Origin: an uncultured Planctomycetota bacterium
GTDB lineage: Bacteria > Planctomycetota > Phycisphaerae > Tepidisphaerales > Tepidisphaeraceae
DNA: 64,000 nucleotides
NCBI GenBank assembly: GCA_963841915.1
Contig: CAWJEN010000006.1
Coordinates: 1,440,001-1,504,000, forward strand
Direction: 5' to 3'
Position numbers and translations under genes: made by a program. Positions 1,891 through 25,012 of the stretch are shown here, piece by piece (position 1 is the first letter of the stretch; every line of letters starts with the position of its first letter). The notes beneath the pieces were generated by a model, which ran no database searches, was not told where the DNA came from, and saw only the letters and a program-made list of their open reading frames with translations.

Positions 1891-3759
1891 ATGAGCCGCC
1901 CAGCAGCCCCCATCGATCGTCGTAACCGTCTCCGTGCGCTCCGCCTCGCCGTTGCCGCCTCCGTGGTCGTCGCAGGTCTTGGCGTCGTTGCCGGCTGTGA
2001 CGACGAACCCGAAGACGCCGTCGCTCTGCGATCGCTCCGCAGCGTCGTCGACCGCCAAAGTGCCGGCGAGCCGGACCGCGCGTATCTGACCGACCTCGAG
2101 ACGCTCCGTGGTAATCCGAATCTGAGCGACTCGACCGCTGCGTTGGTCGATCGCGTCTCCGGTGACGCACGATTGGCCGAGGCCAATGACATCTTAATCG
2201 GTTCTCCCGCCGTTGAGCAGGGCGAGCAAGGTGTGCCGGGGCTGCTCGATCTGCATCTGCGTTCGGTGCGACTGGCCGAGGGGCTCAACGCCCAGGCCCG
2301 CACCCTGGCGACCATGGCATCGACGCAAAAGCAGCTTGGCGTGTCCAGCGAAGCGGCCGGCCGGGGCGTGCAGGCAATGAGCGACAAGGCCGAGCAAATT
2401 CGCACGGGCGACCGGTGGTCGCCGGCCGCCGGTGAAACCGACGGCAACGGCCCGTACGCCGGTCTCGATGGCGAACTCTCCGACCTCGACCGCCAGGGCT
2501 TCCAAGCGTACCGAGACGCGCGGGCGTCAATCGCCGAACTGCAAATGCTTGCCGTCAAGGGCGTCGAGGCGGAGCTGGCGACCCTGCAGGGCAAAGCCGG
2601 AGAGATCCAACAGCAGATTGATGACCTTGAGAGCCAGCGGCGTGAGAAGCTTGCCACCGCCGGTGGTCGGGAGCGAACATCGATGACCGATCAGGGCGAC
2701 GACGCCGTCGCCTCTGCCCGGGAAGTAGCTGACCTCAACATTGAGGCTGGCCAGTTCCAGCAAGAGATCATCGTGCTGACGCGTCAGCTCAATGCCACGC
2801 AGCGTGACATCACGCTGCTGGAAGCACGCGTCACCTCACTGCAGGCGGCGGCGACGATGCTCGAGGAACAGGCCGAATCCATCCGCCAGTCCTTCGACGG
2901 CGCCGACGGTCTGGCGACGGTAAGTCGCCAGGTGACGAGCGAGGCGCAGGTCGTGCTTGCCGGTCGCGGCGAGGCCGAGGCAGGTATGTCGGCGATGGCC
3001 CAGGAGCTGGCCGAGGTGCGTCAGGAAGCCGACGACGTGCGTGGCCAGGTGCTCGATGCTCTTGCTGCCGCCGAGAGTGCGTATGCGTCGGCGGCCGACC
3101 GTGCCGGAAAGTCGCGCGGCCGTGCCACGACGCCCGCCGCTCAGCTCGCCGCCGACAGCCTCACCGCAGCCAGCGCATCGGCGAAGCTGGCGCTGGCCGA
3201 CATTCGGCGGCAGGTCGGTGAACTCAAGATCGCCCAGGCGACGGTCGAACTGAGCCTGCTGCGCCTGTCGACGATGCTCGAGGCCGCCCCATCAGGTCTT
3301 GACGTCAGCGACGTGCAGGCCGTCACAGAAGACGCCGCCGACACGCTCGAGCGGGTGCTGTCCGAAGCCGCCACCGCCTTGCAGGAAGCTGGCGACGCCG
3401 CGGCGAGCGTCAGCAGCAGCGACGCCGATCTTCGGCGTGCGGCGACGGTCCAGCAAGCACTGGCCCTAGGTCACATGCTCGACATCGCAAACCTCGTCGA
3501 GGCGGCCCGTTCGATGAACGCGGGCACCGGCATCACCGTGTCACTGCCGGACACGAGCGAGCTGCAGAGCCGGCTAGCCACCTTGGCCAGCGACGCCGAG
3601 TCGTCGGGCATGTCGCTGCCGATCATCCGTGGGCTCAACGAGATCGCCGGCGACGCCGAGACCGAAGCCGCCGGCACGGAGCCGGCTGACGAAGGTCCGG
3701 CCGGTGAAGACGTCGACGCCGTCGGCCCAGAAGGCATGGGCGACGACGCGCCCGAGTGA
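1891..3759 (+). CDS. Hypothetical coiled-coil lipoprotein
   Basis: Signal peptide with lipobox-like VVAG-C, long Ala/Glu/Gln-rich helical region, acidic tail; start uncertain (1804 or 1891). Confidence 0.65.
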   Translation: MSRPAAPIDRRNRLRALRLAVAASVVVAGLGVVAGCDDEPEDAVALRSLRSVVDRQSAGEPDRAYLTDLETLRGNPNLSDSTAALVDRVSGDARLAEANDILIGSPAVEQGEQGVPGLLDLHLRSVRLAEGLNAQARTLATMASTQKQLGVSSEAAGRGVQAMSDKAEQIRTGDRWSPAAGETDGNGPYAGLDGELSDLDRQGFQAYRDARASIAELQMLAVKGVEAELATLQGKAGEIQQQIDDLESQRREKLATAGGRERTSMTDQGDDAVASAREVADLNIEAGQFQQEIIVLTRQLNATQRDITLLEARVTSLQAAATMLEEQAESIRQSFDGADGLATVSRQVTSEAQVVLAGRGEAEAGMSAMAQELAEVRQEADDVRGQVLDALAAAESAYASAADRAGKSRGRATTPAAQLAADSLTAASASAKLALADIRRQVGELKIAQATVELSLLRLSTMLEAAPSGLDVSDVQAVTEDAADTLERVLSEAATALQEAGDAAASVSSSDADLRRAATVQQALALGHMLDIANLVEAARSMNAGTGITVSLPDTSELQSRLATLASDAESSGMSLPIIRGLNEIAGDAETEAAGTEPADEGPAGEDVDAVGPEGMGDDAPE

Positions 3760-3775
3760 CGTCGTACGGTCGCTT

Positions 3776-4835: not shown

Positions 4836-5594
4836 GTGCGTCGCCTTGCGTTGTTGCTCAGCCTCTTGCTCGTGTCCCCGGCCTCGGCTGATGCGATTGA
4901 GGCATTGCGGTCAGGTAACGAGCGGCTGGTCGCCTCGACAACGCTCGCAGCGCCGGGTGACCTGCTTGCCGTCGTCGTGACAACGGGCGATCTGGACTTG
5001 GACTGGTTATTCGACGTCGGGCCGGGTCGGTTGATCCGCGTCGACGCAGACGCACCGGATCGGCTGGCCGTATTGGAAGCGGTGCTGGCAGAGGCCCATC
5101 CGCCAGCGCTGGTCGTGCTGGGTCGCGAGCAGGCAGACGCCGATGCGACGGCAACCGAGATCTCTCGTTCGCTCGGTGCGTTCAGCCGTCTCGACTCCGC
5201 TGTCGCAACCCTTGAGCCGGGGACGATTCGCGTGCGTTGGGGGACGACGCAACATGTTGTAGCTCGGGCCAAACCTGCGGAGGTCGTGCTTGAGACCGCT
5301 CTCACCGAGGCGCAGCCGCCGACGCTGGCAGTGGTGGCAACGCTTCCCGTGCCGACGGAACCTGCGTCGTGGCCCTGGACGCTGAGTGTGTTTGGATTCG
5401 TCGTACTGATCGGTGGCGGGGCGTTTCTGGCGACGCGGCGACCCGGCGACAGCACGGACACGCCGCTCATGCCGACGGCCGACGATCAGCGGCTGCAGGT
5501 TGCTGTCGAGGCGCTGTCGGTGAAGTTGCAGGCATGGCAGTCGAGTTTCGGCGGCTCAACCCCGCGGGCCACCGGGCCGATACGTCGCAAGTGA
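4836..5594 (+). CDS. Hypothetical exported/membrane-anchored protein
   Basis: Signal peptide (VRRLALLLSLLLVSPASA) and C-terminal TM helix; overlaps the cheR start. Confidence 0.55.
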   Translation: MRRLALLLSLLLVSPASADAIEALRSGNERLVASTTLAAPGDLLAVVVTTGDLDLDWLFDVGPGRLIRVDADAPDRLAVLEAVLAEAHPPALVVLGREQADADATATEISRSLGAFSRLDSAVATLEPGTIRVRWGTTQHVVARAKPAEVVLETALTEAQPPTLAVVATLPVPTEPASWPWTLSVFGFVVLIGGGAFLATRRPGDSTDTPLMPTADDQRLQVAVEALSVKLQAWQSSFGGSTPRATGPIRRK

Positions 5595-7230: not shown

Positions 7231-7683
7231 ATGATGCAAATCCCTTCAACAAGCAACGGCACGGATGGCGATGCGGCTCGATGCCGCGTGCTCATCGTCG
7301 ATGACTCTGCAGTCACCCGCGCCATGGTCCGCCGAAGCGTCATGCTCAGCGGTGTCGACGCCGACATTGAAGAGGCGGCCGACGGAATGGAAGCCTTGGC
7401 CGAGCTGCGTGCCGCACAAGAGGCCGGCCGCTCGTATGACGTTTGCTTTCTCGACCTCAACATGCCCCGTATGGGTGGCGTCGAGGTTGCCACCGAGGCC
7501 TGCGGGCAGGGCGGCGTGTCGACCCGCGTCGTCATCGTCTCCAGCGAATCGATGTCGGCCCGCATCAAGCAACTCCAGGAGGCCGGTGTCAGCGGCTACA
7601 TCAAGAAACCGTTCAAGCCCGAGGAAATTCGTGGTGTTCTGGCCCGCGTGCTCGAACCTAAGTCGGCGATCCGCGCCGCTTGA
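7231..7683 (+). CDS. Single-domain response regulator (CheY-like)
   Basis: LIVDDS, FLDLNMP (phospho-acceptor Asp) and KKPF motifs. Confidence 0.9.
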   Translation: MMQIPSTSNGTDGDAARCRVLIVDDSAVTRAMVRRSVMLSGVDADIEEAADGMEALAELRAAQEAGRSYDVCFLDLNMPRMGGVEVATEACGQGGVSTRVVIVSSESMSARIKQLQEAGVSGYIKKPFKPEEIRGVLARVLEPKSAIRAA

Positions 7684-7733
7684 ACCTTTGCCGCTTTCCC
7701 CGTCACTGCCGCTTCAACTGCAAGTCCAACGCC

Positions 7734-8300
7734 ATGTCCTTTGATCCCTTTGCCGAAGACGTCGAGGCCGTCGCCACTGACGATCCCTTTGCGGCCGACC
7801 CCTTCGCGGTCGAACCGACGGCCGCCGCACCCGACGACGTCGCCGAGCCGTTGACGCCGCTGCAGATCGCCGTCCATGCCGTTCGTGACGCGATGGAGAA
7901 GAGTTCGTTCGTCACGGCCAACGAATCGTCGGAGGCAACGATGCCGTTGCAACTCAAGCGTGTGACGCTCACCTTCGGTGGACCGGCTGCCGGAACGCTG
8001 GCCATTGTCGTCGATGCGACTCTGGGGAACCTGCTCGTTGCCAACGTGCTCGGCATCGATGAGGACGACGAGATGGCGACCAGTGCGTGCGACGACTCGC
8101 TCCGCGAGCTCGTCAACGTCGCTGCCGGGGCGATGATGCCGCGACTGGTCGGCGACGTCGAGACGGCCTGCCCGCTGGGTCTGCCTGAAGTGTCGCCGGC
8201 GACAGCGTCGGATTGGCAGATCGCCTTGAACGACGGCCGCCATCAGTCACTCGACGCAGAAGGTCGACCGCTGCTCGTCGGCCTGCTCAAGGCGGCTTGA
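7734..8300 (+). CDS. CheX/CheC-family phosphatase
   Basis: DSLRELVNVAAG (ExxN motif), LGLPEV; located in the che cluster. Confidence 0.7.
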   Translation: MSFDPFAEDVEAVATDDPFAADPFAVEPTAAAPDDVAEPLTPLQIAVHAVRDAMEKSSFVTANESSEATMPLQLKRVTLTFGGPAAGTLAIVVDATLGNLLVANVLGIDEDDEMATSACDDSLRELVNVAAGAMMPRLVGDVETACPLGLPEVSPATASDWQIALNDGRHQSLDAEGRPLLVGLLKAA

Positions 8301-8389
8301 AGCTGCGGTAGGGGCCACACCCGATCGCGTTGTGCCGAGAGGCCGAGCAGCGGCCGGTCCTGTTAAAGAACCACTTCAACCAGCTCAAG

Positions 8390-9463
8390 ATGTCCCCAGC
8401 AGCCAAGCATGCCGGCCCGATTCGCGTTCTCGTCGTCGACGATTCGGCCATCGTTCGTCGCGTTCTGACCCGCGAATTGTCAGCTGTTCCGGGAATTCAG
8501 GTCGTCGGCACGGCGCCCGACCCGTACGTCGCACGCGACCTGGTGTTGAAGCTCAAGCCCGACGTCATCACGCTCGATGTCGAAATGCCGCGGATGGACG
8601 GTCTGACGTTCTTGCGTCTGCTGATGCGGAGCAGGCCCACGCCGACGATCGTGGTCAGTTCACTGACGCCAAAGGGCAGTCGGTCGGCCATCGAAGCGCT
8701 GGAGTGTGGTGCGGTCGACGTGCTGTGCAAGCCAGACGGATCGATCAGCGTTGGGGATATGGCGACTGAACTCATCGACAAGGTGCGGATGGCCGCCCGG
8801 GCCCGGGTGTCGGCCAGAGCCATCGCGCCGCCCAAGGCCGCGTCCGCCGCGCCGCGAACGTCACTGGCCGAGACGACCGACCGCATCCTGGCCATCGGCG
8901 CCAGCACGGGCGGCGTGCAGGCATTGACCAACGTGCTGCCGCGACTGCCGGCCTCGGCGCCGGGCTGCGTGATCGTCCAGCACATGCCTGCCTCGTTTAC
9001 CGGCAGTTTTGCAAGAAGGCTCGACGACATGTGCCAGGTCACCGTTGTCGAAGCCAGGCACGGCGACACCGTTTTGCCGGGCCATGTTCTTCTGGCACCG
9101 GGTGACCAACACATGAAGCTCGCTCGCAGCGGTGCGCGGTACTACGTCGAGCTTGTCGGCGGTCCGCCCGTCCACCACCAGCGGCCGGCCGTCGATATCT
9201 TGTTCGACAGCGTCGCCAAGGTCGCAGGCCGCAACGCCGTCGGTGCCGTGCTGACCGGCATGGGCGCCGACGGTGCGGCCGGCTTGCTCGCGATGCGTCG
9301 CGCCGGCGCCCGAACGCTGGCCGAAGACGAATCGACGTGCGTCGTCTACGGCATGCCTCAGGAAGCCTTCAAGCAGGGCGGCGTTGAAGAAGTGGTCAAG
9401 CTCGATGACGTGGCAGACGCCATGCTTCGTTTGAGCAGCGCTCGTTCCCGTCTGGCCGCTTGA
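8390..9463 (+). CDS. cheB: Chemotaxis response regulator protein-glutamate methylesterase
   Basis: REC domain plus GASTGG, IVQHMP and LTGMGADGA motifs. Confidence 0.95.
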   Translation: MSPAAKHAGPIRVLVVDDSAIVRRVLTRELSAVPGIQVVGTAPDPYVARDLVLKLKPDVITLDVEMPRMDGLTFLRLLMRSRPTPTIVVSSLTPKGSRSAIEALECGAVDVLCKPDGSISVGDMATELIDKVRMAARARVSARAIAPPKAASAAPRTSLAETTDRILAIGASTGGVQALTNVLPRLPASAPGCVIVQHMPASFTGSFARRLDDMCQVTVVEARHGDTVLPGHVLLAPGDQHMKLARSGARYYVELVGGPPVHHQRPAVDILFDSVAKVAGRNAVGAVLTGMGADGAAGLLAMRRAGARTLAEDESTCVVYGMPQEAFKQGGVEEVVKLDDVADAMLRLSSARSRLAA

Positions 9464-9516
9464 CGCGCTGCGCGGCGGCGGCCGATCGGCGATTGGCGGC
9501 GAAGGATTTGCTCGAT

Positions 9517-9532
9517 TGTTCCACGTGGAACA
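9517..9532. promoter_or_regulatory. parS centromere-like site
   Basis: Perfect 16-bp palindrome TGTTCCACGTGGAACA matching the bacterial parS consensus; intergenic. Confidence 0.9.
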
Positions 9533-9589
9533 TCGGCCGACCCTCGCCAGAGGTCGCCACGCACGATTTTGCCGCCGTTGCGGAGCCAA

Positions 9590-9605
9590 TGTTCCACGTA
9601 GAACA
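9590..9605. promoter_or_regulatory. parS site (one mismatch)
   Basis: TGTTCCACGTAGAACA, 73 bp from the first site. Confidence 0.8.
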
Positions 9606-9756
9606 GGTAAGCCCGCTTAAAAGTACGTCGGCGGGTCGTTCCTGCAGCATCACGATCCGACCGCACCAAGCACGCTGCTGCGTCCGCCGTCGCGTCTTTT
9701 GCAACAGGGTCCGTCCGCCGTACGACGCCAAACCTGTTGCGCCGCCGCGGCCGCCT

Positions 9757-11322
9757 TTACGGCGACGGCACGCGATAGATCGTCACGTGCTCAGAGCCAC
9801 GCCACGCGATGCGTTCGTCTTCACGTTCGTCACTTCCGAGTCGGACGACGAAGCGCGCCCCGTGCCGCCGGGCGACGTCCATGAGCTCGTCGATGGACCG
9901 CTCTGCGTACGCCGCGTCCATCTGTTCCTGTGCCACGACATATCCGCGCAAGCCGCCGGCAAAGGTCGACAGATCATCCTCGCCGGTGACGTCGCGCAGC
10001 CGATCGGCCCAGCCTTCGAGCTCGCCGGACAACTGAGGCACGAGCTTGAAGCTCACGACGTGCCCACGCCGCGCGTTGATCGGGAACGCCGACCCGACGC
10101 CCGGCGGCACGAGGAACAGCGTGTCCGGGGGCGTGTGCTTTTTCGCCCAATCCGCCGCCTGGATGATCGCCGTACTTGGCTGCGGCTGGCCGGGAGGGGA
10201 GACGGTGCCGCGGAGCAACAATGAGCCGAAGCTCAGCGAAAGCAGCAAGGCGACGCCCGTCGGAAGCAACCACGCTGCTCGCCGTTCCTGTGGCTGCTTA
10301 AGCCAATGGGCGGCCAGCGCCGTCACCGCCAGCAGCTTGGCGTGTGGGCCGAATCGCCAGAGGCTCAACTGCACAAAGGTCTCTCCGAGGTACCAGAGGC
10401 CTGCCGTCAGCAGGGCGAAGAGCTGCAGGCTCATCAGGAACAGCCACGCGACGGCCGCCACGCTCCACGCCGGCTCGGCCCGGTGTCGCCGCCACGCCAG
10501 CACTACGAACGGCGTCGGCAACACAAACGCCAGCCACAACCACCACGGCCACACCGAAGCGTTGTAATGGTGCGGATGACGCAGCTCGACGTACAGCTCG
10601 ATGAACGGTGCGAGCGGCAGCCCACCCTCGGCCGCGAGCTTCGCCGGCAGGGCCAGTCCGACATTCAACAACGCGGGGCCGATCGCCAGGAGTGAAGGGA
10701 AAAGGTGCCGTTTCCAGCGGGTTGGCGACCTGACGCGTCGCGGCTGCAGTAACGTCATCGCGACCCACAACGGCGGGCACACGACGGCGTAGTTCAAGTG
10801 AAACGCTCCTGCCACGCCGAAGGCGGCGCCGGCGGCGAGGAGCTTGTTCTCCATTCGCATCGCGATGCCGACCACCAACGCCACCGCCGCGACGTTGCCG
10901 GCGTTGAACTGGCCGTCCTGCAACAGCGAGTAGAAGCCCAGCGATCGGTCGCCGACGAGAACGTGGTACAGCAGCACGGCGGCCAGAAACGAAACGGAAT
11001 CGCCGCCGAGCGCACGGGCGATACGCCACCACGCCCAGGCGAGCGCCAGCACGAGGCCGAGGAAAATCAGCACAAAGCCGGTCTTTGCACACCGGATCTC
11101 GAACAGCCACCCCGCAATCACGCTGAAAAGGCCGTGATATTGCAGTGTGCCCGTCACGAATGGATCGCCCTCGAACGTTGCCAGCCCGGCCCGGCGGAGC
11201 GGTTCGAGCAGGTACACCTCGTGGTTTCCGGCGAGGAACGAATAGCCGGTGACCGCGATCATGAACGCCGCCGCTGCGACGATGGCGGCAAGGTCGGCAG
11301 GTGGTGGCAGTCGCCGCGGCAC
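9757..11322 (-). CDS. Multi-pass membrane protein (DUF6798-like; possibly GT-C-type)
   Basis: Many TM helices, AFHLNY and LRHPHHY motifs, soluble C-terminal domain. Confidence 0.6.
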   Translation of the reverse strand: MPRRLPPPADLAAIVAAAAFMIAVTGYSFLAGNHEVYLLEPLRRAGLATFEGDPFVTGTLQYHGLFSVIAGWLFEIRCAKTGFVLIFLGLVLALAWAWWRIARALGGDSVSFLAAVLLYHVLVGDRSLGFYSLLQDGQFNAGNVAAVALVVGIAMRMENKLLAAGAAFGVAGAFHLNYAVVCPPLWVAMTLLQPRRVRSPTRWKRHLFPSLLAIGPALLNVGLALPAKLAAEGGLPLAPFIELYVELRHPHHYNASVWPWWLWLAFVLPTPFVVLAWRRHRAEPAWSVAAVAWLFLMSLQLFALLTAGLWYLGETFVQLSLWRFGPHAKLLAVTALAAHWLKQPQERRAAWLLPTGVALLLSLSFGSLLLRGTVSPPGQPQPSTAIIQAADWAKKHTPPDTLFLVPPGVGSAFPINARRGHVVSFKLVPQLSGELEGWADRLRDVTGEDDLSTFAGGLRGYVVAQEQMDAAYAERSIDELMDVARRHGARFVVRLGSDEREDERIAWRGSEHVTIYRVPSP

Positions 11323-18365: not shown

Positions 18366-19355
18366 TCAGTCCAGCTTCACATCGACGTAGACCGGCAGGT
18401 GGTCGCTCGCCACCCGCGCCCAGGGCGTGTCGTACACGCCGATGACCTGCACCTGTGGTGCGAGGTCGGGCGTGGCGACGATGTGATCGATAAAGCTGCG
18501 ATACCGATCCCGCCAGTAACCGCTGAAGGTTTGGACGCCTGCGTCGGCAAGGCTTTGCGTGACGAGGACGAGATCGTTCGTCGCGTCGTCGTCATTGGTG
18601 CCGACAAGGTCGCCGATGACATCGCCGCCGGCTTCGAGCTCGAATTCCTGCACGCCGACCTCGTCGTTCATGTCGCCCAGCAGGAGGACGCCGGCCTCGC
18701 CCTTGGCGGCGAGATCACGGATGATGTCGTGCGTCGCCTTGGCTTCTGCGGCACGCCACCTGGTGACCTCAACGCTGTTGCCGCCTTTGGACTTCTGGTG
18801 CGTGACGCCGACCCAGACCCGCTTGCCGTCAGGCGTCTCGACCAACACGAACGCCGGCCCGCGGGCAAAGAGAAAGTCGCTCCTGGGATTCAGATCGCCT
18901 TCGTCGGGCATCTTGTAGAACTGGTCTTCGGTCTCGACGATGGTGAACCCGTCTCGCAAAAGGATGCCCAGCGTCTGCACGCGATCCGAGTTGCCGGCAA
19001 AGACGACCCGCGTCGGGTAGGTGCCTTCAAGCCACTGGTCGGCGAATGCATCGAGCGAGGCCTGGTCGCACCCTTCTTCGAACACGAGCACGTCGGGGGC
19101 AAATGCCGGATCAAGCAGGACCTGGGCGATTTCCCAGTTGTCTTCGTCGTTCTGATATCGCTCCTGGGTCCGCTGCTCGCGGCCTTCTTCGGTGGCAGGC
19201 TCGGGCAGACCCTTGTCGCGAAGGGACTGAAAGTGGTCGTTCCAGTTCTCGATGTTCCACGTCGCCACCCGCACGTTCCCGGGCATCGGCGGCGCGGCGA
19301 GCGCGGGCGACGCGACACACAGAAGGGCGGCAACGGCAAGGGCGGAACGGATCAC
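18366..19355 (-). CDS. Secreted endonuclease/exonuclease/phosphatase family protein
   Basis: Signal peptide; ATWNIEN, HQKSK, GDMND, IDHI and SDHLPV motifs. Confidence 0.9.
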   Translation of the reverse strand: MIRSALAVAALLCVASPALAAPPMPGNVRVATWNIENWNDHFQSLRDKGLPEPATEEGREQRTQERYQNDEDNWEIAQVLLDPAFAPDVLVFEEGCDQASLDAFADQWLEGTYPTRVVFAGNSDRVQTLGILLRDGFTIVETEDQFYKMPDEGDLNPRSDFLFARGPAFVLVETPDGKRVWVGVTHQKSKGGNSVEVTRWRAAEAKATHDIIRDLAAKGEAGVLLLGDMNDEVGVQEFELEAGGDVIGDLVGTNDDDATNDLVLVTQSLADAGVQTFSGYWRDRYRSFIDHIVATPDLAPQVQVIGVYDTPWARVASDHLPVYVDVKLD

Positions 19356-19979
19356 GCCAAACCCTATCCAGCAACGCCAGCCGCCGCTTAAGCCTTGCGC
19401 ATTGGCGGTGGGGCGATCTGGCAAGCCTCGCCCAGGTGCGACGGAGCCACGTGCAACATCGGCGGCGTCTCCACCCCCGAGCCGTCCGCCGTCCGCACCC
19501 GGACCCGAAGAAACGACAGCCACCGCCGCAAGAAGCGCCTCCGCCGACGGTTCCTCACGTCCCCCCTGTGCGAGTCAGCCCCGGCCGCCGCCGAATCGCA
19601 CGACGCGGGTGGGTATGGATCTTGCCATGGCCAGCTCGCCCTTGTCGCCACCCCGGCCGATGCGGTACAACATGTGCGTGCGACGGCTGCGAACATCACG
19701 CTGTACTCAAGGGGTCGAAAAGGCTCGCGACCCCTTTATCTGCCTCACCGCGTGCAACGATTGCCGATCCCCCCAGGCAACAACGCGAGGAAAAGGCTCG
19801 CGACTCCTTTATCTGCCTCACCGCGTGCAACGATTGCCGATCCCCCCAGGCAACAACGCGAGGAAAAGGCTCGCGACCCCTTTATCTGCCTCCCGCGACC
19901 CCTTTATCTGCCTCAGTGGGTGTACGGACGAAGGCGTTACATACTTTCATTGAAAATACTCTACTGGAGATAGACGCAG

Positions 19980-20699
19980 ATGAAGTCATTACCACTCCTC
20001 ACACTGGCAGCCGCGATATCATGCGGCTTCATTATGTACCACGTGGTGAATGGCGGCTCGCAAGTTTTCACGATGATCAAGACGAGTTCTCTAGCAGACT
20101 TCGATAGTGTCTTTCACAAAATAGGAGCTCAATCGCTTCTTGCAGACAGTTTAGGCGAAGATATCTATACCGAGGCATATGATTTCGGATCAGAAAGGAT
20201 CTATTTCGTGAAAGTTAAGTTCCCTGATGACGAAGATCTCCAAAATTGGTTAGCCAGTACGCCAGCTATCACGTCCGGCGAAGTCAATGAATATCATCAA
20301 GTAGCTATCGCGAGACGATTTAGGAGCAATCTGAATGTGTTTCCGGGATGGTTTCCACCAGAAGCAATCGAGAGCGGGAGAACTTTCTTTGGCGAGAGCA
20401 TTAGTGGCAATTACATCGGGTGGATGGCGGCAAGCAGAGGTCGCTCGCAAACTGATGGGGCACACCTCTTTTTCCTCATGGTTCGAGAGCACAGGGAAGA
20501 TAAAGGGGGACGGCAGACAAAGGGGGCAGACAAAGGGGTCGCGAGCCTTTTCTGCCTCCGGATGTTTCATGGCCCGGTCTACCCTTGTCGCCACCCCGGC
20601 CGAAGCGGTATAACATGCGGGTGCGAACATCATGCTGTGCTCACGGTGTCGAAAAAGCTCGCGACCCCTTTACCTGCCTCCCGGAATCAATTAAGGTGA
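19980..20699 (+). CDS. Low-GC cassette gene 1, hypothetical membrane-anchored/secreted protein; C-terminus reads through the repeats
   Basis: GGAGA RBS, hydrophobic N-terminus; AT-rich sequence ends at ~20500, where repeat-derived sequence begins. Confidence 0.7.
   Translation: MKSLPLLTLAAAISCGFIMYHVVNGGSQVFTMIKTSSLADFDSVFHKIGAQSLLADSLGEDIYTEAYDFGSERIYFVKVKFPDDEDLQNWLASTPAITSGEVNEYHQVAIARRFRSNLNVFPGWFPPEAIESGRTFFGESISGNYIGWMAASRGRSQTDGAHLFFLMVREHREDKGGRQTKGADKGVASLFCLRMFHGPVYPCRHPGRSGITCGCEHHAVLTVSKKLATPLPASRNQLR
20585..20614 (+). promoter_or_regulatory. Sigma70-like promoter in the repeated inter-REP module (also at 19642-19671 and 21462-21491)
   Basis: TTGTCG-N18-TATAAC; TACAAC in the other two copies. 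Confidence 0.5.
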
Positions 20700-20908
20700 A
20701 CCGCGTGCGGCAGCCCTCCACCATGCCTGATGTCCGCCCGCTAATGCCGGGTGAGCCACAACAAAGGCTCGCGACCCCTTTATCCGCCCTAAGGTGAACC
20801 GCGTGCGGCAGCCCTCCACCATGCCTGATGTCCGCCCGCTAATGCCGGGTGAGCCACAACAAAGGCTCGCGACCCCTTTATCCGCCCTAGCAGAGTGTTT
20901 CGGTCAAT

Positions 20909-21394
20909 GTGGCGGGTTCGCCTCATGTGGAGGAGGTGGTTCCTTTGCTTAGTAGATTTAAGATTGTTACATGGATCATGCAATGGCGAGTCTTGCTAGT
21001 CGCGGTGCCTGCATTGTTTGTGTTCCTATGCCTTGATGTTGAGCATGTGAGGATTAGGGAGACACCGGATCGAGATGCCTCCACAATACATAGAATCGAT
21101 GTCGACTCGGGAAGGTTCAAATATACTCAGACCATCATGGGGACAGAGGATTTTGTCAGGTTTGAGCAGTCAGAGCTAAGATCAGCTGAGACGGGTGTAA
21201 ACGTAAAGCTCCCATCGCTTAATCGCGTGCTGGTGCTCCAGCCGGAGCTGGTACACTTTGCCCGAATCTCAGGTGACAAAATGGTTGTATCGACCGTCAG
21301 TATCATCGTACCTGCCGCACTGACTGTAGGTGCAGGCTTGCTATTTGTTTTGATTAGCAAGACCCTGTTTCTGCGGAAGTGGAGGGGGAGATAG
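20909..21394 (+). CDS. Low-GC cassette gene 2, hypothetical two-TM membrane protein
   Basis: N- and C-terminal hydrophobic helices; GGAGGAGG at 20929 suggests a start at TTG 20945. Confidence 0.65.
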   Translation: MAGSPHVEEVVPLLSRFKIVTWIMQWRVLLVAVPALFVFLCLDVEHVRIRETPDRDASTIHRIDVDSGRFKYTQTIMGTEDFVRFEQSELRSAETGVNVKLPSLNRVLVLQPELVHFARISGDKMVVSTVSIIVPAALTVGAGLLFVLISKTLFLRKWRGR

Positions 21395-21640
21395 AAAGGG
21401 GCGGAGATAAAGGGGTCGCGAGCCTTTTCTGCCTCCGGATGGTTCATGGCCCGGTCTACCCTTGTCGCCACCCCGGCCGAAGCGGTACAACATGCGGGTG
21501 CGACGGCTGCGAACATCAAGCTGTACTCAAGGTGTCGAAAAGGCTCGCGACCCTTTTACCTGCCCCCCTTTTATCTGCCCTCAAGGTGTCGAAAAGGCTC
21601 GCGACCCCTTTATCTGCCCCGAAAGAAAAGAATCACGAGA

Positions 21641-22303
21641 ATGTACCACCTCGAGCTGGGGTGCCGTATCCGACGACTGGTGAAATGCCGTGGAACATGT
21701 TTGGCTGAAACCGCTTCCCGACCCACTTCAACAGCCATGCTCCTTTTCCTCGCAACAACCATCTTCGGAGCTCTCTCAACTGCATTGCCAGGATCTTCAT
21801 GTTCTGAAGGATCGACTACAGCCGTGTTCGTCGTGAGACAGTCTGCTCACCTTTCGTTCTACGATCTAGATGGAACGGCATCGCCATCACATGTAAAGAT
21901 AGTGCGACATGCAGTCGTCATCCAGGATGTGTGGGTTGACATCGCAATCTCTAAAACCGCTTTATCCGGTGGTCTATGCCCGTGTAGTCAGGAAGTTTGC
22001 ATTTGGGCTGTCGACGATTCAGAGCCGAAGCAAGAGTGGCGGCAGGTGCACGCGGTCGGCCTAGAACTTCTTAAACCTCAAGAAGCTGTTAGATGGTCGG
22101 AGAACGGCGGGAACAGGGTTCTGCTTGCTTCTGCTGATGCGGAAGTTCGTCGTGTCAAAGGACATGTGATTAACGAGTACATGTCTAGGTTATCAGATGT
22201 TGTGTCTGGAGCTGATAATGATGACACTGATCGAGAGTTACTCACCACCACAGTTGAGACGGTTGCTGTGCTTCCGAGGGAGCAATCGCGATTGGAGGAA
22301 TGA
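21641..22303 (+). CDS. Low-GC cassette gene 3, hypothetical secreted protein
   Basis: AT-richer ORF between repeats; alternative start ATG 21737 gives a signal-like MLLFLATTIFGALSTA. Confidence 0.55.
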   Translation: MYHLELGCRIRRLVKCRGTCLAETASRPTSTAMLLFLATTIFGALSTALPGSSCSEGSTTAVFVVRQSAHLSFYDLDGTASPSHVKIVRHAVVIQDVWVDIAISKTALSGGLCPCSQEVCIWAVDDSEPKQEWRQVHAVGLELLKPQEAVRWSENGGNRVLLASADAEVRRVKGHVINEYMSRLSDVVSGADNDDTDRELLTTTVETVAVLPREQSRLEE

Positions 22304-22342
22304 CGGTACCTCGGTGGAGATCAGCAGATAAAGGGTCGCGAG

Positions 22343-22553
22343 GGCTCTGTCTCGACCCTCTTCTTCGCCTGAGGACCATCGTGTTGTGGACGACGCTCTT
22401 GAGCAGCATCTCCATCTCCCGGCCGCGACGCGTGCGGCCCCGCAGCGTGTCGCCCAGGTTCCGCTTCATCATCGAGTTCACGCACTCGACGCCCGAGCGC
22501 CGCCGGTAGGCCACGCCCCCGCCGTCGCGGCGGAACTTCTTGTGCATCCGCCG
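22343..22553 (-). mobile_element. IS remnant: C-terminal DDE transposase fragment (IS5/IS4-like) with probable IS end
   Basis: YRRRSGVECVNSMMKRNLG...KSVVHNTM resembles the YxxRxxxE...K (YREK) signature; GGCTCTGT at 22343 resembles a terminal inverted repeat. Confidence 0.7.
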
Positions 22554-22749
22554 AGAGAATAAAGGGGTCGCGGAGAGAATAAAGGGGTCGCGAGCCTTTT
22601 CTCCGTGCCTAGCCTGCTGCCATGCCTCGCACCTCGCGAGGCGGCAGACAAAGGGGTCGCGAGCCTTTTCTGCCTCCGGATGTTTCATGGCCCGGTCTAC
22701 CCTTGTCGCCACCCCGGCCGGGGGCAGATAAAGGGGTCGCGAGCCTTTT

Positions 22750-22857
22750 TTGCCGCGCCTAGCGTGCTCCCATGCCTCGTACCCCGCGTGACGCCCCCGG
22801 CGGACTCGTCTACCACGTCCTCAACCGGGCCGTCGCCCCCCTGGCCATCTTCGAGAG
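22750..22857 (+). pseudogene. Truncated near-identical copy of the RAYT gene 5' end
   Basis: Encodes MPRTPRDAPGGLVYHVLNRAVAPLAIFE versus ...NRAVARLAIFE in the full gene; bounded by REP copies. Confidence 0.9.
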
Positions 22858-22937
22858 GGAGATAAAGGGGTCGCGAGCCTTTTCCAAGCGGAGACAAAGG
22901 GGTCGCGAGCCTTTTTTGCCGCGCCTAGCGTGCTCCC

Positions 22938-23678
22938 ATGCCTCGTACCCCGCGTGACGCCCCCGGCGGACTCGTCTACCACGTCCTCAACCGGGCCGTT
23001 GCACGTCTGGCCATCTTCGAGACGGACGGCGACTATGCGGCGTTCGTCAAGGTGTTCCGCCAGGCGGTCGAGCGGCAGGATCGGCTGGCGAAGGAGGGCC
23101 GTGCCAAGCGGGTTGACGTGCTGGCGTGGTGTCTGATGCCGAATCACTGGCACCTCGTCCTGCGGCCGCGAGGCGACGGCGAGCTGTCGACCTTCATGCG
23201 GTGGCTGACGATGACCCACACGCAGCGGTGGCACGCCAACCGGCGGTCGGCGGGGACCGGGCCGTTGTACCAGGGGCGGTTCAAGAGCTTTCCCATTGAT
23301 CCGCATCACGATGGGCACCATCTGACGGGTGTGCTGGCCTACGTGGAGCAGAACGCCCGGCGGGCGGGACTGGCCCAGACGGCGGCGGCGTGGCCTTGGG
23401 GCAGCCTCGGGCGGCGGCCAGGCGGCGAGTATGAGCGGCACGAAGAGCCGGGGCCACGCCTGCTGCCGATCGAGCGGCTGCCGGGCGGGCACGCGTGGAC
23501 GGCGGACGCGTGGCAGAAACACGTCGAGCAGGAATTTGACGCCGAAGTCGAGCGGGAGCTGGAGGCGAGCTTCAAGCGTGGCCGCCCGTACGGCAGCGAG
23601 CGGTGGACGAAGCGGATTGCAGGGCGGCTGAACCTCGACAGCACCCTGCGGCCGCGAGGTCGGCCACGGCTCACGTGA
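22938..23678 (+). mobile_element. REP-associated tyrosine transposase (RAYT; HUH Y1_Tnp superfamily)
   Basis: YHVLNR, CLMPNHWHLV (HUH), YQGRFKS, YVEQNARRAGL (catalytic Tyr), WPWGS, RPRGRP tail. Confidence 0.92.
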
Positions 23679-23790
23679 AACAACGACAAGCAGCCGGCAA
23701 GAACAGGATGACACCTTGATCGCACCTGAGCGATTGTGTCTTCTTCGCCGCTGAGGGCATCACTGCGTCCGATCCGCTTTTGACTGCTGA

Positions 23791-23872
23791 TAGCGACCGT
23801 GGGACTCGAACCCACACTCCGTGAGGAACTCGATTTTGAATCGAGCGCGTCTGCCAATTCCGCCAGGCCGCC
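23791..23872 (-). tRNA. tRNA-Leu(CAA)
   Basis: GGCGGCC-TGGCGGAATTGGCAGACGCG-CTCGA TTCAAAA TCGAG, long variable arm, GTGGGTTCGAGTCCCAC-GGTCGCT-A; CCA not encoded. Confidence 0.97.
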
Positions 23873-23905
23873 GGCTTGAAGGTGGGCATCGTAGCCTAGC
23901 TGTCC

Positions 23906-25012
23906 ATGGCTTGTCGCGTTGCGATTCTCGGCTCCACCGGTTCGATCGGGTCGCAAACGCTCGACGCCATTGATGCGCTCAACGCCGACGGCTTTGACTT
24001 TGAGATCGTGGCGATGGTGGCCGGCAAGAACCGCAAGACGCTCGACCGGCAGGCCAGGCGGTGGCCCAATGCGACGGCGAAGCTGGCCATCGACGAAGGG
24101 CCGGGCGCGTTGGTCGAGGCGGCCGAGCGGGGCGATGTGGATGTCGTGGTGCACGCGGTGGTTGGGGCTGCCGGGCTGCCGGCTGCATTTGCTGCGTGCG
24201 AGGCCGGTCATCGCAGGCTGTGCCTGGCCAACAAAGAGTCGCTCGTCGTCGGGGGGTCGCTGCTCATGGCGACGGCTAAGGCGAATGGCGTCGACCTCGT
24301 GCCAATCGACTCGGAGCACACGGCCATTTTCCAGGCGATGGCGTGCGGGAGACGCGAGGAAGTCCGTCGCGTGCTCCTGACGGCCAGCGGCGGGCCATTT
24401 CGTGACGCTGCCGAGTGGCCGACACACAAGCTCGAGCGGGCGACGATCAAGCAGGCCCTTGACCACCCGACGTGGACCATGGGCGGCAAGATCACGGTCG
24501 ATTCGGCTACGTTGTTTAACAAGGGTTTCGAGCTTATCGAGGCGGTTCACCTTTACGGACTCAAGGCCGACGACGTGCAGGTCGTGGTTCATCCGCAGAG
24601 CATCGTTCATTCGATGGTCGAGTACGTTGACGGCAGCACGATCGCCCATCTGTCGCCGGTCGATATGAAGCTGCCGATCGCGTACGCGTTGACGCATCCG
24701 CGGCGTGGGGCGTCGGGCAGCGGGACGCTTGACTGGTCGCAGGCGATGACGCTCGACTTCGAGCCACCCGACGAGGAGCGATTTGCAGCGTTGCGGCTGT
24801 GTCGTGAAGCGGTCACGCGGGGCGGCGTTGTGCCGACGTACCTGAATGCGGCCAACGAGGTGGCGGTGAACGCATTTCTTGCCGGCGACTTGCGTTTCGG
24901 CGACATCAGCCGCGTGGTCGAGCGGGTGACGCGTCAGGCGCCGCAGCAAGAGCCGACGTCGCTGGCGGAGTTGCTTGAAGCCGACACCGCAGCACGAGTG
25001 CTGGCGGCGTGA
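23906..25012 (+). CDS. dxr: 1-deoxy-D-xylulose-5-phosphate reductoisomerase
   Basis: LGSTGSIG, LANKESL, PIDSEH, TASGGPF, HPTWTMGGKITVDSAT and NAANE motifs. Confidence 0.98.
   Translation: MACRVAILGSTGSIGSQTLDAIDALNADGFDFEIVAMVAGKNRKTLDRQARRWPNATAKLAIDEGPGALVEAAERGDVDVVVHAVVGAAGLPAAFAACEAGHRRLCLANKESLVVGGSLLMATAKANGVDLVPIDSEHTAIFQAMACGRREEVRRVLLTASGGPFRDAAEWPTHKLERATIKQALDHPTWTMGGKITVDSATLFNKGFELIEAVHLYGLKADDVQVVVHPQSIVHSMVEYVDGSTIAHLSPVDMKLPIAYALTHPRRGASGSGTLDWSQAMTLDFEPPDEERFAALRLCREAVTRGGVVPTYLNAANEVAVNAFLAGDLRFGDISRVVERVTRQAPQQEPTSLAELLEADTAARVLAA

Follow-up and report, generated by a model that had tools for sequence, protein, structure and literature searches.

Can a single-strand transposase and its own palindromic repeats serve as joints at which single genes are added to a bacterial chromosome? 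The question is raised by a stretch of 64,000 nt from the genome of an uncultured planctomycete (the window, whose numbering is used throughout), in which many copies of one repetitive extragenic palindrome (REP) border three unrelated open reading frames (ORFs) on one side of a gene for a REP-associated tyrosine transposase (RAYT). The locus is a REPtron/TIRtron, consisting of a RAYT-like transposase of the TIRYT type, its cognate REP and a non-autonomous REP doublet (REPIN). We tentatively favour the reading, with somewhat less than an even chance of being right, that the REP borders are joints for single-gene cassettes, probably formed by RAYT-catalysed strand transfer. This genome (G000; contigs are given as C-numbers and fetched loci as L-numbers) was compared with the other members of the genus set (G001-G004) and with G021 and G022 from other genera, and 41 genomes were searched for relatives of the transposase.

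The repeat array and its cognate transposase

The array fills a 4.1-kb block between a gene of the Exo_endo_phos family and tRNA-Leu(CAA) plus dxr, in the middle of a 1.75-Mb contig (Table 1). The assembly comprises 3.63 Mb in 6 contigs at 64% GC, and the GC profile proposed in the initial annotation places the longest low-GC segment of the whole assembly here. The three ORFs, described there as unrelated, AT-richer and co-oriented, are indeed mutually unrelated, point in the same direction and have a GC content of 0.45-0.52 vs 0.64 for the genome. The repeated grammar claimed for them also holds: the order of one or more REPs, an ORF, a REP, a conserved spacer of ~109 nt and an inverted REP occurs three times.

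The 20-mer AAAGGGGTCGCGAGCCTTTT is present on either strand in 15 copies at ≤2 mismatches in the window, all of them at 19718-22915, while the chance expectation is 0 (no match in any of 100 dinucleotide shuffles). Eight copies are in F orientation (19718, 19791, 19864, 20652, 20762, 20860, 21538, 21592) and seven in R orientation (20532, 21409, 22581, 22650, 22730, 22864, 22896). Six partial copies, namely a truncated R form (22324-22348), two halves (19894, 22561) and three 'extension + arm' copies (20496, 20513, 21566), bring the total to 21 repeat elements within 19590-23678, vs the ~18 hairpin copies first counted beside the transposase. A position table of 44 genomic copies defines a conserved unit of 27-28 nt, made of the 7-nt 5' extension GGCAGAT and AAAGGGGTCGCGAGCCTTTT; the R form is the strand that carries the extension at its 5' side and the F form is its complement. 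At least seven copies in the array stem from local tandem duplication, with periods of 73, 98, 166, 22, 20, 15 and 13 nt (Tandem Repeats Finder), and the variant F-REP subfamily of the 98-nt repeat is also arrayed at C5:405492-406010.

An R-REP, the conserved spacer and an F-REP form a doublet of ~170 nt, which is a REPIN as the published term uses it. Seven full-length copies are found in the genome, and an alignment of 7 sequences has a mean column identity of 81%. R-REP 22650 additionally carries the initial ~52 nt of the spacer (profile positions 6-89). The REPIN folds strongly (-43.4 kcal/mol, z -4.5), unlike the lone REP; the 20-bp imperfect hairpin originally described is a real repeat, but as a lone 20-mer it folds weakly, and the strong folder is the doublet. 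Rfam matched the tRNA alone across 19000-24000, leaving the spacer without a known RNA family, and tRNAs alone at 8 other loci.

The transposase gene at the right end of the array is intact, as the initial annotation held; its product matches Y1_Tnp above the Pfam cut-off (Table 1) and aligns over its full length with relatives, which are found in 29 of the 41 genomes. The match to the NCBIfam model REP_Tyr_transpos (NF047646) reaches 52.2 bits and stays below the cut-off of 80. Aligned to E. coli TnpA-REP (4ER8, E 0.011), the protein pairs NHWH with EHMH (the HUH motif), AYVEQN with DYIYIN (the catalytic Tyr) and WPW with WPF. No Pfam family, helix-turn-helix (HTH) domains included, was matched in its C-terminal extension of ~90 aa.

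RAYT copies in G000 amount to one intact gene, one paralogue of 32% identity and three fragments. The promoter region and first codons of the gene are present three times at 22597-23026 (8 codons, ~29 codons and the full gene) with an R-REP before each, and the fragment at 22772-22864 shares 87% identity with residues 1-31. Two more REP clusters contain RAYT fragments, one at C5:405858-405941 and the other, which has 2 TAG stops, at C5:416879-417088. The second RAYT-like gene (C5:936036-936749, minus strand, 32% identity, NCBIfam E 2e-6) is located within the low-GC segment 936080-937080. G015, G013, G007 and G009 hold 10-26 transposase matches per genome, many of them fragments at contig ends, and the family behaves more like a multicopy element in these genomes than in G000.

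The repeats of the array are supported as the cognate REPs of the adjacent RAYT-like gene because an R-REP precedes its start at a near-constant distance, 22 nt upstream of the ATG in G000 and about 23 nt in the 78%-identical orthologue of G001, and because hairpins bracket the gene in relatives. Before the start codon, a related hairpin of the AAAGGGG(T/A)C type is found in 18 of 20 fetched loci from other genera (GGGG[AT]C core, five with GGG or another variant). L080 and L082, in which no upstream word recurs, were excluded from the bracket count, and 15 of the remaining 18 loci show an upstream R and a downstream F form ~700-780 bp apart. The downstream F-form repeat is missing at the RAYT locus of G000.

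The repeat itself is restricted to the genus. At ≤1 mismatch, 41 exact REPs were counted in G000, 9 in G001, 1 in G002, 2 in G004 and 0 in G003, and none in 36 further relatives; a variant whose loop reads GGGA is present at low copy number in G002-G004. A scan of genome contigs for the REP returned genus members and one single-copy match elsewhere. The exact REP is genus-specific.

REP polarity, low-GC DNA and variable cargo

The genome-wide search suggested at the outset yielded 50 REP sites at ≤3 mismatches, grouped in 11 clusters, with a third of the copies beside the RAYT gene and few copies in the other members of the genus. Consecutive REPs in G000 enclose 11 gaps of 300-3000 bp, of which 9 are F-to-R, 1 is F-F, 1 is R-R and 0 face outward. 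In the F-to-R gaps, the extension sides point inward around a single ORF (549-1347 bp). With each arrangement at 1/4, the chance of 9 inward gaps among 11 is ~1e-4 (calculated by hand), where the three gaps of the window are not independent and the count is informative just for singlet REPs because the symmetry of a REPIN forces the inward orientation. The inward arrangement is also present in G001 (3 units), G002 and G003.

The polarity coincides with base composition. The extension side is the GC-poorer one at 40 of the 50 REPs (means 0.58 vs 0.64). Singlet REPs without spacer homology direct their extension toward the ORFan or lower-GC side at C3:201255-201924, C6:104957-105600 and C6:1189801 (left), and likewise at C5:554281-555628, C5:623662/623765 and C6:1082071/1082123. 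Segments below 0.52 GC account for 0.73% of the bases of G000 in 47 segments, 7 of which have a REP within 200 bp; 5 of the 11 REP clusters touch such a segment vs 1.2% expected per random point, and 8 of 11 do so at a threshold of 0.55 GC vs 4.1% expected.

Scars are found on the cargo side of the REPs in the form of iterated 'extension + arm' or half-REP copies, with the junction after TCGCG, in G000 (window and C3) and G001; iterated extension-plus-arm copies occupy the cargo side in G002 as well. A fixed polarity of the REPIN spacer relative to the cargo ORFs was considered and rejected: the window and two loci agree with it, whereas C3 and the DUF1559 gene disagree.

The initial annotation proposed a test of whether RAYT loci carry different cargo at the same syntenic position. 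Synteny at the RAYT locus is too scrambled for this comparison, but one site of this kind was found away from it, at the 3' flank of nrdJ, which is comparable in all five genus genomes. In G000, the nrdJ stop is followed by a low-GC gene for a 342-aa STAND-like ATPase and by two REPs whose extension points toward it. G001 has a degenerate REP-like hairpin after the stop, then a low-GC gene for a 535-aa AriA/OLD-like ABC ATPase, 1.5 REPs and two more. In G002, two small ORFs of ordinary GC come first; they are followed by an F-REP whose extension is iterated in four copies, an ORFan of low GC and, at the contig end, a degenerate R-REP. The nrdJ stop of G003 is followed by a variant F-REP, a low-GC gene for a TIR-TM protein (PADLOC E 8e-99) and a variant R-REP, and at the G004 site a REP-like hairpin lies against the end of an insertion sequence (IS), again at a contig end. 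By eye, the similarity among the G001, G003 and G004 sequences appears to end at the REP arm. Different single genes thus fill one REP-bordered slot at nrdJ, and two of them match known anti-phage families (TIR-TM and AriA/OLD-like).

Differences between G000 and G001 are found at other REP loci. The RAYT gene of G001 and two cassettes form an insertion relative to G000, whose site at C5:1144471-1144534 is empty. In this part of G001 (L031, C1:1606000-1624000, positions 7545-11154), the adjacent 1.1-kb core gene is inverted between two REP-bearing segments relative to G000 C5:1143368-1151045, and looks as if it had been flipped by recombination between inverted REPs. The interval from pdhB to Uma2 is 1.5 kb of ordinary-GC DNA without a REP in G001, and holds a low-GC ORFan and two REPs in G000. 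Between asnS and groEL, G001 has 15 kb with no clear REP and G000 has 2.1 kb.

The architecture recurs in a second genus with a different repeat. The REP of G021, AAAGGGGTCATAAGCC, has 26 matches at ≤2 mismatches vs 2 for a control. Its RAYT locus consists of a REPIN, a 305-aa gene, three half-REPs, a RAYT fragment, another REPIN, a 193-aa gene (0.50 GC), REPs, the RAYT gene and a REP, which form two inward-facing units of 623 bp (GC 0.50) and 1147 bp (GC 0.56). Six of seven other REP loci fetched from G021 abut or sit within low-GC DNA, and one singlet REP is placed exactly at a step from 0.65 to 0.45 GC with its extension toward the low-GC side. G022 has one REP-bounded unit beside its RAYT gene. 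Cassette arrays are recurrent in the family and not universal.

Cassette joining at REPs would draw on the chemistry of TnpA-REP. This enzyme binds single-stranded REPs, and a 5' tetranucleotide guides cleavage at sites 5' and 3' of the hairpin; a 5'-phosphotyrosine link is formed, and a supplied oligonucleotide can be ligated through its 3'-OH to the REP substrate after the cut (PMC8266576). For the present locus, the sequences show the architecture and its polarity, the association with low-GC DNA, the differing cargo at nrdJ and the recurrence in a second genus. By analogy, the catalytic steps, causal direction and cassette mobility that we infer would be the following. The RAYT would cut single-stranded DNA beside a REP and keep the 5' phosphate link, and another 3'-OH end would be joined at the cut REP. 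The extension side of the REP would be the true DNA joint, at which single accessory genes are inserted or swapped, and repeated events near the transposase gene, together with hairpin-driven slippage and tandem duplication, would build the array. The extension side is favoured as the enzyme-made joint because the cargo lies there and because partial copies pile up there in three species. A wider proposal is that RAYT/TIRYT enzymes and REPs constitute a single-strand-DNA gene-acquisition platform in these planctomycetes, integron-like without an integrase, in which the HUH enzyme would join incoming single-stranded DNA at the extension side and so build and reshuffle stores of single-gene cassettes, anti-phage genes included, both beside the transposase gene and at hot spots elsewhere in the chromosome; we consider this proposal rather unlikely.

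A number of observations weigh against joining at REPs. The lone 20-mer is a weak hairpin with a 5-bp stem of about -2 kcal/mol, and shuffled sequences fold equally well. Low-GC DNA is mostly REP-free: 40 of the 47 segments below 0.52 GC lack a REP, and a relaxed REP motif is missing in 17 of the 20 largest REP-free low-GC segments, so that REPs are neither needed for foreign DNA nor present in all foreign DNA. Conversely, ordinary-GC genes lie within some inward REP pairs (the DUF1559 gene, for example), and the sole R-R gap holds an ordinary-GC Uma2 gene. Among the other-genus RAYT loci, 15 of 18 are a bare R-RAYT-F arrangement with no cassette within about 6 kb, and of the 3 with a unit 2 had a low-GC unit. 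The cargo genes are predicted ORFans, and no cargo gene was seen in two places or in two of the genomes compared. A scan of metagenome contigs with a REP 19-mer returned just 2 small unrelated loci and no closer strains for comparison. The cassettes are flanked by inverted sites, unlike the outcome of simple site-specific insertion of a circle. The statement of the initial annotation that the RAYT captures and stacks cassettes therefore goes beyond the data: nothing shows capture, excision or stacking, no cargo occurs twice, the REPs are inverted rather than direct, and the window contains no tyrosine recombinase.

The same observations can be read in the opposite causal order. The low-GC genes would have arrived by other means, for example by integration near tRNA genes or by homologous recombination of conserved flanks at hot spots, and REPINs and REPs would have settled at their borders later, with the RAYT taking no part in acquisition. 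Insertions may be tolerated at such borders, AT-richer DNA may more often be single-stranded, and the transposase may prefer its own neighbourhood. We regard this account as quite possible. The 3' ends of tRNA genes are classical island sites, and four REP clusters have such an end at a distance of 0.1-1.7 kb, a further point against REP joining. A REPIN-only insertion polymorphism shows that doublets move alone: a short doublet (R and F starts 64 nt apart) occupies G004:C9:283-366 where G000 C3 (~9320 of L035) is uninterrupted. Symmetric REPINs on both sides of a gene yield the inward orientation automatically, low-GC islands of G021 contain REPINs placed between two genes that are both of low GC (L088, L091), many array copies are local tandem duplicates, and the variable slot at nrdJ might be a defence hot spot of the usual kind. 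REPINs are, moreover, known non-autonomous elements that are mobilised by RAYTs and cluster round RAYT genes (PMC3337134, PMC3390384). Late settlement accounts less readily for the spacer-less singlet REPs that flank single-gene islets on either side, at the step in GC and with the same polarity (C3, C6:104957-105600 and C6:1189801 left, and in G001, G002 and G003). At ~50 REPs per 3.6 Mb, repeated double hits on the borders of one 0.6-kb islet would need strong targeting, and the Pseudomonas pattern is the opposite, since there it is the core genome that REPs mark, and regions of acquired DNA form REP deserts (PMC3390384). Colonisation of existing islets is nearly as likely as capture at the REPs.

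Insertion sequence remnants, assembly and the features of the locus

A truncated R-REP in the window abuts an IS remnant (22324-22560, minus strand) whose match to Pfam DDE_Tnp_1 (E 1.4e-4, 22.1 bits) falls just below the 23-bit cut-off. The same junction of IS end and REP, with the terminal motif GGGCTCTGTCTCGACCC, occurs twice in G000, at window 22342 (22324-22358) and at C5:572803 (572785-572820), and a related IS end lies against the REP-like hairpin beside nrdJ in G004 (L059, C18, about 370-420). These junctions suggest that a REP-targeting IS exists here. That IS elements target REPs is established knowledge. Such targeting finds support in PMC8450116.

Cargo might accordingly be moved as composite units, in which two REPs or REPINs and the gene between them are carried by the RAYT, or be delivered by REP-specific IS, with no capture of naked foreign DNA by the RAYT. 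Remnants of one IS abut the REP at the same repeat position at the two G000 sites, an IS lies inside a REP-bounded segment in G021, and a full REPIN stands on at least one side of most cassettes, all of which fit this possibility. We nevertheless judge it improbable. A search with the end motif found no intact copy of the REP-abutting IS in G000, and the three cassettes of the window have no flanking IS; insertion of the IS splits the REP, whereas whole REPs border the cassettes. A composite of resident genes would fail to explain the low GC content, and no duplicated cassette was seen.

A repeat-induced mis-join in the metagenome-assembled genome could also have produced the array. The assembly contains many short repeats and perfect tandem duplicates in its 6 contigs, and the blocks flanking the array are adjacent in no relative. 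Gene order is, however, heavily scrambled throughout the genus and not at this locus alone, the repeats measure 28-170 nt only with unique genes of 0.5-0.7 kb between them, and the locus lies far inside its contig. Misassembly is highly improbable because the grammar recurs in independent assemblies, being present at 10 other places in this assembly and in those of four other genomes.

The scrambling limits what comparison at the locus itself can provide. Orthologues of the Exo_endo_phos gene are present in 4 of 4 genus genomes, and the tRNA-Leu/dxr flank is conserved as well; the two are never adjacent, and their neighbours vary per species. No empty site is definable at the window locus because its two flanks never adjoin in relatives. 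No REP (≤4 mismatches) or low-GC tract was found at the orthologues of the window flanks in G001, G003 and G004, or at the Exo_endo_phos flank in G002. Empty-site comparisons at C3, C6:104957 and C6:1189801 met equally scrambled surroundings, and at C5:554281 the right flank alone was matched in relatives.

Two side observations were made in these comparisons. An element of ~75 nt next to groEL occurs three times within the asnS-groEL interval of G001 (L085, C1:1872500-1892499, at 3687-3761, 4899-4973 and 7897-7971) and may be another small repeat family. In L040 (G000 C6:1077000-1088000), the pyruvate dehydrogenase E1 alpha and beta genes are ~0.9 kb apart at 2400-3260 with two small ORFs between them, and the E1 genes share 93-97% DNA identity between G000 and G001 vs roughly 70-75% for most matched blocks.

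Table 1. Features of the array and its flanks, in window coordinates.
Feature	Position	Strand	Evidence and remarks
Exo_endo_phos family gene, left flank	18366..19523	-	Pfam PF03372; core gene, kept across the genus
5'-truncated REPIN, left edge of array	19590..19750	+	spacer + F-REP 19718-19744; nhmmer match to REPIN profile 18-178, E 2e-45
73-nt tandem repeat x2.5	19717..19914	+	one F-REP per unit (19718, 19791, 19864); then 22-nt half-REP duplication 19872-19914
Cassette ORF1	19980..20510	+	177 aa as far as the REP; signal-like segment at the N-terminus; GC ~0.45
Iterated 'extension + arm' (20496, 20513), then full REPIN	20496..20684	+	R 20532, 100-nt spacer, F 20652; E 2e-53
98-nt tandem repeat x2	20692..20889	+	100% identical; variant F-REP per unit (20762, 20860)
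Cassette ORF2	20909..21394	+	161 aa from GTG 20909 (ATG at 20978); hydrophobic N- and C-terminal segments; GC ~0.49
Full REPIN + 15-nt extension duplication + extra F-REP 21592	21396..21620	+	R 21409, F 21538; E 4e-59; fold -43.4 kcal/mol, z -4.5
Cassette ORF3	21737..22303	+	188 aa; signal/lipoprotein-like N-terminus; GC about 0.51
Truncated R-REP 22324-22348 abutting IS remnant	22324..22560	-	IS terminal motif 22342-22358; C-terminal DDE fragment
20-nt half-REP duplication, R-REP 22581, first RAYT 5' fragment, R-REP 22650	22549..22722	+	fragment = untranslated region (UTR) + 8 codons; repeat family D9
166-nt tandem repeat x1.8	22726..23026	+	R-REP 22730 + RAYT 5' UTR + ~29 codons; then R-REPs 22864, 22896 and intact gene start; 96% identity
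Intact Y1 HUH transposase, RAYT/TIRYT-type	22938..23678	+	246 aa; Pfam Y1_Tnp 32.5 bits vs cut-off 23
tRNA-Leu(CAA), right edge	23791..23872	-	ARAGORN, Rfam; 3' end faces the RAYT stop, 112 nt off
dxr	23906-25012		beyond tRNA-Leu; Pfam

Each of the three cassette ORFs begins with a hydrophobic signal-like segment, as read from the sequence. None of them belongs to a Pfam, NCBIfam or PADLOC family, and none has a paralogue in the genome or a homologue in the fetched loci of relatives. In a library of 5.8e9 proteins, ORF1 and ORF3 matched themselves alone and ORF2 had nothing at E ≤0.001; a HMMER scan of 1.84e9 representatives with ORF1 returned itself and 4 weak partial matches. The single-sequence fold of ORF1 has a mean pLDDT of 44.5, and the best ESM Atlas score of ORF3, 0.81, is uninformative. 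None of the outcomes that the initial annotation had named as evidence against its own view was encountered; the three ORFs, which it had thought might stand contiguously and without repeats in a relative, were absent from the fetched loci of relatives and, apart from self matches, from the large protein libraries. ORF1 has no stop before the repeat, and its frame continues across the entire doublet as far as 20699 (239 aa in the protein library); the doublet may either have truncated ORF1 or now provide its C-terminus.

Relation to known systems

The locus shares most of its parts with the REPtrons of E. coli, Pseudomonas and Stenotrophomonas: a Y1 HUH gene beside its own palindromic repeats with a conserved 5' extension, inverted doublets able to form a long hairpin, a single intact copy of the gene and genus-specific repeats. 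It differs in its extension (GGCAGAT here, GTAG in REPtrons), in having ~50 copies in 11 clusters and in a transposase under the NCBIfam RAYT cut-off. In Pseudomonas, REPs characterise the core genome and avoid acquired regions (PMC3390384), whereas the repeats here adjoin accessory genes of low GC. TIRtrons provide the other half of the resemblance, with a longer RAYT-like protein (TIRYT) whose gene is bracketed at fixed distances by GGGGWSAS-like terminal inverted repeats (TIRs) (PMC3733652; subclass 2.1, PMC6006769). The TIR core here, GGGGTCGC, fits GGGGWSAS at 7 of 8 positions, and relatives have GGGGTCAT, GGGGTCAG or GGGGACGC. TIRYT repeats occur in small families, as single copies, dimers or clusters, and the genes were reported to be numerous in a planctomycete (Di Nocera et al. 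2013 PMC3733652; Quentin et al. 2018 PMC6006769). Unlike the present case, the available text on TIRtrons does not describe repeat-bounded cargo genes; the downstream repeat is missing at the G000 gene, and the C-terminal HTH of subclass 2.1 was not detected by Pfam.

The likeness to integrons lies in co-oriented, single-ORF cassettes that are mostly ORFans, have an atypical composition and stand next to a recombinase gene, in imperfect inverted-repeat separators that fold as single strands, and in REP-bounded cargo of which some matches anti-phage families. However, the window contains no tyrosine recombinase (PF00589), and the genome's 4 such genes are at C5:214852, C5:1103483, C6:288627 and C6:1106900, not nearby. 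The separators are one conserved family vs diverse attC sites, the flanking repeats are inverted vs direct sites, and the transposase gene is downstream of the cassette genes and co-oriented with them. The locus is not an integron. IS200/IS605 elements resemble it in their Y1 HUH enzyme, subterminal hairpins, single-strand chemistry and a guide sequence 5' of the hairpin (PMC8266576), but their hairpins are on the same strand and the whole element is multicopy, while here the ends are inverted, one gene is intact and dispersal is limited to the repeats.

That a TnpA-REP-family enzyme shapes neighbouring cargo genes has been proposed for tnpA-REP and procA (prochlorosin) in marine picocyanobacteria, on genomic and indirect evidence that the authors later weakened (bioRxiv 10.1101/2020.03.09.984088). 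In the text available, that proposal deals with a single gene family whose members face the transposase gene; unrelated cassettes bounded by REPs do not feature in it, and the process invoked is diversification rather than acquisition. REP-bounded arrays of unrelated single-gene cassettes were not found in the main text available from the literature on RAYT, REPIN, REPtron and gene cassettes or islands. RAYT, REP and REPIN together are a known kind of system; what is new is the placement of single low-GC, lineage-specific genes between inward-facing REPs.

RAYTs and REPs are widespread, their role in the cell and their movement are still debated, and the DNA that they mark in the best-studied genomes is old and stable. 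In the present genome, the REP system marks, with fixed polarity, the borders of the genome's newest DNA. If the joint is made by the transposase, the system would represent a second and mechanistically unrelated route to integron-like cassette stores, and would give a 'domesticated' single-strand transposase a concrete function. If the joint is not made by the transposase, the case still shows that REP-type repeats can point dependably to acquisitions of single genes in uncultured bacteria of high GC content.

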